From Escherichia coli (lineage in GTDB: Bacteria; Pseudomonadota; Gammaproteobacteria; Enterobacterales; Enterobacteriaceae): a DNA stretch of 64,000 nucleotides. Below, piece after piece: positions 36,353 to 37,465 of this stretch; the stretch's first letter is position 1, and each line of letters starts with the position of its first letter. The stretch lies in the NCBI RefSeq assembly GCF_024298765.1, contig NZ_CP101210.1; one strand, written 5' to 3'. The translations under genes were made by a program, and so were the position numbers. Below the pieces are notes generated by a model, which did no database searches, was not told the origin of the DNA, and worked only from the letters and a program-made list of their open reading frames with translations.

Positions 36353-36400
36353 ATTAGCAACAAGCGGAACATCACCTCGCACGGGGTGATGTTCACAAAA

Positions 36401-36574
36401 TCACATTATTTTGATTTTGACATCATAACTTTCAAGCCCGGTCATTTTTTCTCGTGCGGTGAAGCGAATTTCAGAGACTTCTTTCCCTGTATTCTTGTTC
36501 AGCTCGGCGATTTTTTGCGCGATAAAGTCGGCGATTTCCGTTTCGGCTTGTTTTTTTAACTCTTCAATATTCAC
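36401..36574 (-). CDS. gnsA: GnsA, small protein (overexpression suppresses secG/fabA defects); GTG start
   Basis: Minus-strand translation (M)NIEELKKQAETEIADFIAQKIAELNKNTGKEVSEIRFTAREKMTGLESYDVKIKIM, 57 aa; below the ORF-track size cut-off. Confidence 0.8.
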   Translation of the reverse strand: MNIEELKKQAETEIADFIAQKIAELNKNTGKEVSEIRFTAREKMTGLESYDVKIKIM

Positions 36575-36794
36575 TGTTAACCTCTTCTGGTCTTAAAAGA
36601 CAGCAACACGCCAGTAAGGTGTTGGTTCCCGGTACCCTGGTCAGGTAAGAAATGTTATAAGCCATCTCCCCGAAAGATTCAATAATCAACAGGTTATCGC
36701 TTACTATACATACAGCGTTGAAGAAAAATAAGGCAGATATAAAAAAGGCTCCACGAGGGAGCCTGATATTATTTTGTGAAATCCAGCGGCGCAT
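36564..36794 (-). CDS. ymcE: YmcE, small cold-shock-associated membrane protein
   Basis: 76-aa product MRRWISQNNIRLPRGAFFISALFFFNAVCIVSDNLLIIESFGEMAYNISY...; 3' end overlaps the gnsA start by 11 nt. Confidence 0.8.
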   Translation of the reverse strand: MRRWISQNNIRLPRGAFFISALFFFNAVCIVSDNLLIIESFGEMAYNISYLTRVPGTNTLLACCCLLRPEEVNSEY

Positions 36795-36967
36795 GGTCAG
36801 TGCGTATTTGCAGCGCGACGTTATCAAAGGTGATCATCGTCGATTTACAAAAAATACACTTAGCGCCCAAAGGGTTTCGCTCCGTCACATCGAATGCCGA
36901 TGTGCGGTACTGTGAACCATGACAACATGGACAGCGGAAATGGAGATGTTGAGTAATAACGGCAACC

Positions 36968-37180
36968 TTAGAGCGTAACAACGTTCGCTGCCGCGGGGCC
37001 ACGTTGCCCCTGCTCAATAGAAAATTCAACTTTCTGATTTTCGTTCAGTGTGCGGAATTCATTGCTCTGAATGGCGGTGAAATGGACGAAAACGTCTTTG
37101 CTGCCATCATCAGGAGTGATAAAGCCAAAACCTTTATCTGCGTTAAACCATTTTACTAAACCAGTCATTTTATTAGACAT
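36968..37180 (-). CDS. cspG: CspG, cold-shock protein (CspA family)
   Basis: 70-aa [56 protein letters not shown]... Confidence 0.95.
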
Positions 37181-37465
37181 ATTTTACTTCCTTCATTTTG
37201 GGCCTTTCGGCAAACAGGGCTTTAATACAGAAACTACTTAGTGTTCAGGAGAGAGACTCAAAAGAAGGGGATAATGCCTGATAATGAGAACTGCTTTAGT
37301 AAACTACTTTGTATGCTGTCTGTCTTTCAAACCGACGCAGCTATTAACGCATGATAATTGAGATTAAGCAAATTTTATTTTAGCCGTCCGGCGGTCTTAA
37401 ATATCGCTGGCTTTATTTTATTAACCCCGTATAGTGCAGCGCAGTATTTTCAGTAAGGAATTTGT

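Follow-up and report, generated by a model that had tools for sequence, protein, structure and literature searches.

In the type II toxin–antitoxin operons relBE and yefM-yoeB, a small upstream open reading frame overlaps a small downstream one by a few nucleotides on the same strand, an arrangement also seen for ymcE and gnsA of Escherichia coli. Both operons have a single autoregulated promoter upstream of the two genes, the antitoxin binds DNA, and the two partners are conserved together. The ymcE-gnsA pair is listed as a type II toxin–antitoxin system in reviews and surveys; in the literature surveyed, the listing is made only by way of Wei et al. 2015, the paper reporting the GnsA crystal structure, or of reviews. 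A second described relative is the cspI-ynfQ-ynfR-ynfN-gnsB locus of the Qin prophage. Here, as at the chromosomal locus, a csp gene is followed by a ymcF-like gene with CxxC motifs, an intrinsic terminator, a conserved promoter block, a Shine-Dalgarno site and the gnsA/B start codon. The Qin locus differs in that the ynfQ stop codon is separated from gnsB by 473 nt holding ynfR and ynfN, and in that gnsB starts with ATG. Neither a ymcE homologue nor any overlapping ORF is found at Qin gnsB.

We analysed the ymcE-gnsA region of an E. coli genome within a 64,000-nt stretch of DNA (the window), whose numbering is used throughout unless K-12 coordinates are specified. The genes of the region are as follows.

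36401–36574, minus strand: gnsA coding sequence, 57 amino acids with a GTG start (ORF list, Pfam PF08178, RefSeq and K-12 coding sequence annotation)
36564–36794, minus strand: annotated ymcE (sfa) ORF, 76 amino acids with an ATG start (Pfam PF15939, NCBIfam NF007379)
36564–36574, minus strand: gnsA/ymcE overlap, GTGAATATTGA, 11 nt from the gnsA start codon to the ymcE stop codon
36769–36957, minus strand: ymcF coding sequence, 62 amino acids with an ATT start and a CxxC...CxxC pattern (RefSeq and K-12 annotation; Pfam PF23641, 4.2e-49)
36968–37180, minus strand: cspG coding sequence, first gene of the cspG-ymcF transcript (Pfam CSD, 1.7e-33, and annotation)
36914–37336, minus strand: cspA-type thermoregulator covering the cspG 5′ UTR and coding sequence (Rfam RF01766, 162.8 bits, E = 7.5e-44)

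The gnsA GTG lies at 36574–36572 and the ymcE TGA at 36566–36564. ymcE is in the -1 frame relative to gnsA, and its TGA is supplied by gnsA codons 3 and 4 (ATT GAA, Ile3-Glu4). At the other end, the start of ymcE overlaps the 3′ end of ymcF by 26 nt, and the ATG at 36794 is the first ATG of an 87-amino-acid ORF in the ORF list (36564–36827, minus strand).

The same arrangement is annotated in K-12, where ymcE (1051847–1052077) and gnsA (1052067–1052240) likewise overlap by 11 nt. A 661-nt stretch of the window shows two mismatches to K-12 MG1655, both outside the gnsA and ymcE ORFs. K-12 gnsA (b4517) has the same protein, GTG start, length and neighbours (cspH, cspG, ymcF, yccM and torS), with no difference other than the strain, and K-12 ymcE/sfa (b0991) is a 100% identical 76-amino-acid ORF with the same overlaps with gnsA and ymcF. 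A RefSeq strain is 100% identical to the window over a 951-nt query and has the same coding sequences and overlap annotated. Because the coordinates match exactly, the overlap is the known K-12/RefSeq annotation: the gene pair and its overlap are already known, and nothing new is added to this textbook description. The original prediction had given gene names, coordinates, strand, start codon, lengths and an 11-nt overlap, all of which agree exactly with that annotation. It had also remarked that gnsA is easy to miss, as is indeed the case for a 57-amino-acid product when the ORF list has a cut-off of 60 amino acids.

GnsA matches Pfam PF08178 (GnsAB_toxin) at 7.6e-36, with a score of 122.3 bits against a cut-off of 27 and with residues 1–54 aligned to profile positions 1–54. 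The protein is 100% identical to that crystallised in PDB entries 4XO1 and 4XO2. Its GTG codon is preceded by the Shine-Dalgarno site GAAGAGGU, which forms a calculated duplex of -6.5 kcal/mol with the anti-Shine-Dalgarno sequence.

36580–36588, minus strand: gnsA Shine-Dalgarno site, AGAAGAGGT, ending 5 nt before the GTG

The start codon was compared among 39 gnsA loci from species-representative Enterobacteriaceae genomes, 36 of them full-length. The aligned codon is ATG in 27 and GTG in nine of the full-length loci, and a GAGG or GGAG motif is retained 5′ of it in all 36. The paralogue gnsB of K-12 has ATG at the same aligned position, and a protein alignment of 16 clean GnsA sequences is free of gaps from Met1 onwards. 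According to the original prediction, the overlap would disappear if gnsA started at a downstream codon. This candidate was rejected: no in-frame ATG, GTG or TTG occurs before Met44, and the strength of the Shine-Dalgarno site and the conservation of start position and ribosome-binding motif, which extends to gnsB, point to the annotated codon. The gnsA start is secure, and moving it cannot abolish the overlap. The variable columns of gnsA number 7/1/18 at the three codon positions, and pN/pS is 0–0.11 in five of six comparisons with other Escherichia. gnsA is a solid gene under purifying selection and a member of the GnsA/GnsB family.

In the O157:H7 strain F7386, gnsA is frameshifted and the ymcE frame is intact. 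'GnsAB_toxin' has been reported as rare in ST11, probably because of a frameshift of the F7386 type.

The ymcE ORF covers or adjoins several transcriptional signals, all on the same strand.

36741–36764, minus strand: intrinsic terminator of the cspG-ymcF transcript, a 7-bp GC-rich hairpin followed by T6, inside ymcE codons 11–18
36695–36708, minus strand: weak upstream start site, an A at 36695 behind a TATAGT -10 element (36708–36703)
36654–36682, minus strand: gnsA promoter, with -35 TTGAAT (36682–36677), a 17-nt spacer and -10 TATAAC (36659–36654)
36575–36646, minus strand: gnsA 5′ UTR of 72 nt, beginning with the A of the main start site (36646) and ending before the start codon
36362–36394, minus strand: gnsA terminator hairpin (36367–36394), common to the convergent gene yccM, and mRNA 3′ end at 36362

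A scan for consensus intrinsic terminators identified the hairpin AGGCUCCCUCGUGGAGCCU followed by U6, beginning 4 nt past the ymcF stop codon. Five of its seven base pairs are GC, and its folding energy is -11.8 to -13.5 kcal/mol. A hairpin is present just 3′ of the ymcF or ynfQ stop codon in 18 of 18 loci, and in 16 of them it is followed by a T tract; across these loci the stem occurs as GGCUCC/GGAGCC, GGCCCC/GGGGCC and GGUUCC/GGAGCC. Published Term-seq data place an RNA 3′ end at K-12 position 1051901 in LB at an OD of 0.4 and one base away, at 1051900, in another condition (Adams 2021, PMC7815308, supplementary files 1 and 3). These positions map to 36740 and 36741 of the window, where the T tract ends (at its last U or one base beyond). 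The study classed this 3′ end as lying within ymcE, 54 nt past the ymcE start codon and 166 nt short of gnsA. It has an intrinsic-terminator score of 8.09, values of at least 3.0 being suggestive, and lies outside the Rho termination regions (PMC7815308). The hairpin, the U tract and the mapped 3′ end together constitute a working intrinsic terminator. An Rfam match to STnc220 at 36731–36811, which covers the terminator, reaches 34 bits, the gathering score being 60, and was treated as sub-threshold, terminator-like similarity. In strain TW10690, an IS4 element within the terminator severs the 5′ end of ymcE, and gnsA is intact.

DirectRNA-seq coverage downstream of the terminator is not lower than that upstream (468 against 569 reads), in an interval that includes the gnsA promoter. 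CspA-family cold-shock proteins act as antiterminators at intrinsic terminators. The terminator is not absolute, and with antiterminators of this kind acting at a leaky terminator, read-through mRNA spanning the whole of ymcE may therefore occur, especially in the cold.

Downstream of this terminator, and still within ymcE, lies the promoter of gnsA. When the 226 nt upstream of gnsA were aligned among Escherichia, ten Citrobacter loci and Qin gnsB, a conserved block was found, TTGATTATTGAAT-CTTT...TATAAC. In published Cappable-seq data, the strongest plus-strand start site of the K-12 locus is at U00096.2 position 1051218, with a score of 74.8 (Ettwiller 2016, PMC4782308, supplementary file 1). 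Other start sites were recorded at 1051226 (12.4) and, weakly, at 1051169 (3.5), and no plus-strand start site is listed between 1050610 and 1051169, from the cspG leader to ymcE codon 34 (PMC4782308). Positions were converted from U00096.2 to U00096.3 with an offset of +777, calibrated on the cspG start site at 1050528, which corresponds to 37336 of the window and coincides exactly with the 5′ edge of the Rfam cspA-thermoregulator match. With this conversion the main start site is at U00096.3 position 1051995, or 36646 of the window, 7 nt past TATAAC. From there the gnsA GTG is 72 nt downstream and the ymcE ATG 148 nt upstream. Each of the three start sites is an A residue properly spaced from a -10-like hexamer. 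TTGAAT-17-TATAAC, together with the mapped start site, is thus a sigma70-type promoter of gnsA located inside ymcE.

The gnsA transcript ends at an inverted repeat that can be read from the sequence, GAACATCACC...GGTGATGTTC. Its primary Term-seq 3′ end is at K-12 position 1052279 (36362 of the window) in three growth conditions (PMC7815308), and the 5′ end from Cappable-seq and the 3′ end from Term-seq together define a gnsA mRNA of about 285 nt. As this mRNA starts inside ymcE, it cannot encode YmcE. The 131 nt before gnsA diverge by 0.8–3.1% in five of the six other Escherichia representatives and by 8.5% in the sixth (L008); the corresponding range for gnsA itself is 0.6–8.6%. A structured RNA in the gnsA 5′ UTR was considered and rejected, the minimum free energy of -17.5 kcal/mol corresponding to z = +0.92 relative to shuffled sequences. 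An upstream ORF in the ymcE frame downstream of the gnsA transcription start was also rejected, as no ATG, GTG or TTG occurs in that frame from 36646 to the stop codon.

To examine ymcE as a coding gene we used its database families, the other Escherichia species and the substitution patterns of the region. YmcE matches Pfam PF15939 (YmcE_antitoxin) at 1.6e-56 with 188.9 bits, and NCBIfam NF007379, an equivalog family, with 187 bits. A search among 5.8 billion proteins recovered this family as 28 clusters, from Escherichia and Shigella only, several of them truncated, fused or internally frame-switched. Six other Escherichia species-level representatives have intact cspG, ymcF, gnsA and yccM genes, but none of them retains an intact ymcE. 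L004, L005 (E. albertii) and L006 have lost the ATG, L004 having in addition a 6-nt deletion and a premature stop codon; a 1-nt deletion produces a frameshift in L007, L008 and L009 (E. whittamii). No pairing of sequences 5′ of the ymcE ATG with the anti-Shine-Dalgarno sequence was detected.

In the comparisons with these six representatives, ymcE shows no codon periodicity and no sign of protein-level selection in its substitutions. Its variable columns are distributed 13/8/10 over the codon positions (chi-square p = 0.54). Those of its neighbours are concentrated at third positions, with 13/11/33 in cspG, 3/2/20 in ymcF and the counts given above for gnsA (p <= 4e-4), and the pattern of ymcE differs from that of ymcF and gnsA combined (Fisher p = 2e-4). 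Values of pN/pS for ymcE are 0.29, 0.82, 0.90 and 0.39, and infinite in the two remaining comparisons. For the neighbouring genes pN/pS is 0–0.11 in 16 of 17 comparisons (0–0.07 for ymcF), the value for gnsA of L006 being undefined because there are no synonymous changes. The 'synonymous' divergence of ymcE is only 0–0.08 in five of six comparisons, against 0.11–0.43 in the neighbours. Constraint therefore acts on the nucleotides whatever the frame; judged from the sequence comparisons, this frame-independent constraint is what would be expected of a terminator, a promoter and a 5′ UTR.

Within E. coli the frame persists. Of 60 complete genomes sampled evenly, 59 have the entire 76-codon ORF annotated. 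The region is, however, at least 99% identical in 4950 of 5414 genomes, and the frame has therefore had few chances to break. An open frame of 76 codons arises at this base composition in about 1% of shuffled sequences per frame, and in about 3% in any frame, which is unremarkable across the intergenic regions of a whole genome. At these rates of chance openness, the ORF by itself is weak evidence for a gene. The combination of persistence with a chance of about 1% also fits a young functional gene.

The origin of the frame is suggested by the spacing of the paralogous loci. In Citrobacter and Qin the stop codon of the ymcF-like gene is separated from gnsA or gnsB by 223–637 nt, usually with a ynfN-like ORF between the terminator and the promoter. 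The spacer of the Escherichia chromosomal locus is 188–194 nt and consists of terminator, promoter and leader. The ynfN-like ORF is present in 12 loci, ends about 90–440 nt upstream of the gnsA start and has no Pfam match. A conserved alternative partner ORF adjoining gnsA in other genera was looked for and rejected, the ynfN-like ORF alone being recurrent. No YmcE-like ORF was found in 33 of the 39 gnsA loci or at gnsB, and where one occurs it is confined to Escherichia. Two Citrobacter loci have similarity only to the DNA of approximately the last 40 codons of ymcE, and this similarity does not include a start codon.

These observations can be combined in a single model. In this model gnsA is expressed mainly as its own short mRNA, running from the sigma70-type promoter to the hairpin that it shares with yccM, and the cspG-ymcF transcript ends at the intrinsic terminator at 36764–36741. 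The ymcE frame is what is read when the last 26 nt of ymcF are followed straight on through this terminator, the promoter of gnsA and its 5′ UTR including the Shine-Dalgarno site, until gnsA codons 3 and 4 provide a stop codon. Each of these underlying elements would by itself account for the nucleotide conservation seen in ymcE. The Escherichia chromosomal locus would have lost a ynfN-like gene, leaving a 194-nt spacer that is open by chance in E. coli proper. We consider it probable that gnsA is monocistronic and that ymcE does not encode a conserved antitoxin but is an ORF open by chance and specific to E. coli. The terminator, the promoter, the broken frames and the lack of a coding pattern therefore indicate that two annotations overlap here, and probably not two translated genes. 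The original prediction had spoken of overlapping small genes; this stands for the coordinates and for gnsA, but the same four lines of evidence argue against ymcE as a gene of equal standing. The overlap partner of gnsA is most likely an untranslated frame, or at best a very young ORF, and the two most likely form neither a translationally coupled pair nor a toxin–antitoxin operon. The analysis or published mapping shows the coordinates and sequence identity, where the terminator leaves an RNA 3′ end and where transcription starts, and that the ORF is not conserved and lacks coding-type selection; from these we infer that E. coli makes no YmcE protein, or none that functions in vivo. Neither the supplementary files of the SMRT-Cappable-seq study nor the main text of the Weaver preprint mentions ymcE or gnsA.

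Two other explanations of the locus place a protein at the centre of it. According to one, ymcE is a true gene of very recent origin, specific to E. coli and encoding a small hydrophobic protein, expressed from transcripts that start at the cspG promoter and read through the terminator. On such long transcripts ymcE and gnsA could be translationally coupled, because the ymcE stop codon overlaps the gnsA start. The presence of the ORF in nearly all sampled E. coli genomes and the low chance of a frame of this length agree with this explanation, as does the predicted protein, in which a single segment of 19 residues is strongly hydrophobic (Kyte-Doolittle 1.88). Antitermination by CspA-family proteins, which is textbook knowledge, would supply the transcript. 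Published array studies found 'ymcE' RNA to increase together with cspG at low temperature, but the array probes cannot distinguish ymcE from the 3′ end of cspG-ymcF and the gnsA 5′ UTR. A modest butanol-tolerance phenotype has been published for the ASKA ymcE clone. The ymcE ATG nevertheless has no Shine-Dalgarno site, the principal gnsA transcript begins inside ymcE, pN/pS is about 0.3–0.9 or higher with codon periodicity absent, and no other Escherichia representative keeps both the ATG and the frame. We therefore regard a young functional gene as unlikely. A more specific version, in which loss of the ynfN-like gene joined the 3′ end of ymcF to the terminator, the promoter and the 5′ UTR in one open frame, giving de novo birth of a membrane peptide made by read-through in the cold and coupled to gnsA, appears distinctly improbable.

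The other explanation is that ymcE-gnsA is a type II toxin–antitoxin operon, with YmcE as the upstream antitoxin, GnsA as the toxin and the overlap securing their co-expression. A small upstream gene with an overlap of a few nucleotides does resemble many type II modules, and the names in use (GnsAB_toxin, YmcE_antitoxin and 'addiction module toxin' in Pfam and RefSeq) and the reviews and surveys that list the two genes as a pair with reference to Wei et al. 2015 point the same way. The two genes, however, have no common promoter. Counted from the ymcE ATG, the mapped terminator lies at 54 nt and the main start site at 148 nt, and there is no start site just 5′ of that ATG; because the terminator and the start site separate the two start codons, the locus does not have the architecture of a toxin–antitoxin operon. 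Toxin and antitoxin do not occur together either, given the many gnsA loci, and gnsB, that have no YmcE-like ORF, and the natural IS4 insertion in TW10690 removes the 5′ end of the supposed antitoxin gene beside an intact gnsA. YmcE matches its own Pfam and NCBIfam family alone, with no DNA-binding or known antitoxin domain, and the ORF shows no purifying selection. When carried alone on a plasmid, gnsA is a routine multicopy suppressor that rescues growth (published), which is a poor fit with a potent toxin, and no primary data on toxicity or neutralisation were found in the literature surveyed. A toxin–antitoxin operon is thus very improbable, and we favour a monocistronic gnsA preceded by a fortuitous frame.

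The label 'YmcE antitoxin / GnsA toxin' is by now found in Pfam, RefSeq product names, toxin–antitoxin surveys, modelling papers and fold-switch predictions. The main value of the present analysis is a caution about the 'antitoxin' annotation of YmcE, which is attached to an ORF that lies over a terminator and the promoter of the supposed toxin gene, has not been kept open in related species and does not have the distribution of a partner. If the favoured interpretation is correct, gnsA would be a stand-alone regulator of membrane lipids adjoining cold-shock genes, reported changes in 'ymcE' expression would represent signal from the cspG-ymcF 3′ end or the gnsA 5′ UTR, and ymcE knock-outs would be lesions in a terminator or a promoter.

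The locus can thus be placed among its described relatives. The sequence of ymcE is the same as in K-12 but its interpretation differs, since the comparative and transcript-mapping evidence argues that the 'family' amounts to one orphan ORF over regulatory DNA. Unlike in relBE and yefM-yoeB, the start codons of ymcE and gnsA are separated by a terminator and a promoter, and the partner of gnsA is not conserved.

The convergent genes gnsA and yccM have a hairpin in common, and the strand opposite gnsA carries two short ORFs:

36362-36394, hairpin common to gnsA and yccM (GAACATCACC...GGTGATGTTC)
36386-36559, plus strand, antisense ORF of 57 aa
36459-36596, plus strand, antisense ORF of 45 aa

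Because the hairpin is shared by both genes, and the published gnsA mRNA 3′ end lies just past it (5 nt beyond) with no clear U tract, it looks like a bidirectional terminator. Both antisense ORFs were found again in many homologous loci; rather than being genes, they most likely arise as mirror-frame by-products of the conservation of gnsA codons.

Natural disruptions of the region were found in two other E. coli strains:

727-899 of the O157:H7 F7386 locus, gnsA, annotated as a frameshifted pseudogene
88-1416 of the TW10690 locus, IS4 element, inserted at about window position 36761

The ymcE frame is intact in F7386. The gnsA frameshift probably accounts for the reported scarcity of ‘GnsAB_toxin’ in ST11. 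In TW10690, the IS4 element interrupts the cspG-ymcF terminator together with the 5′ end of ymcE, and the gnsA promoter and gene are undamaged. A further insertion sequence, IS1D, lies between gfcA and cspH in K-12 (279-1046 of the K-12 locus); in a comparison restricted to K-12 and strain 104, the latter, whose match to the window is 951 nt at 100% identity, has no IS1 between these genes.

Upstream of gnsA, the cspG-ymcF region includes the following features:

36731-36811, minus strand, STnc220-like Rfam match, sub-threshold (34 bits versus a gathering score of 60)
36769-36957, minus strand, ymcF, 62 aa, CxxC...CxxC, annotated with a non-canonical ATT start
36914-37336, minus strand, cspA thermoregulator match (Rfam RF01766, 162.8 bits), cspG leader and coding sequence

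A start site from published Cappable-seq data, U00096.2 1050528, sits precisely at the 5′ edge of the RF01766 match. The match to STnc220, a Salmonella sRNA, spans the ymcF 3′ end and the terminator; the similarity could reflect a 3′-UTR-derived terminator fragment, or hairpin resemblance alone.

ymcF begins 10 nt past the cspG stop codon and, in contrast to ymcE, is strongly conserved (pN/pS 0–0.07). ymcF-like genes are also found downstream of csp genes in Citrobacter and in the Qin prophage (ynfQ). A ynfN-like small ORF, for which no Pfam family was found, is missing from the Escherichia chromosomal locus and was recorded as follows:

5955-6110 of locus L003, ynfN-like ORF
1869-2168 of locus L010, ynfN-like ORF
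11 other loci, ynfN-like ORF

In Qin, Citrobacter and other genera, this ORF lies after the ymcF-like terminator and before the gnsA or gnsB promoter.
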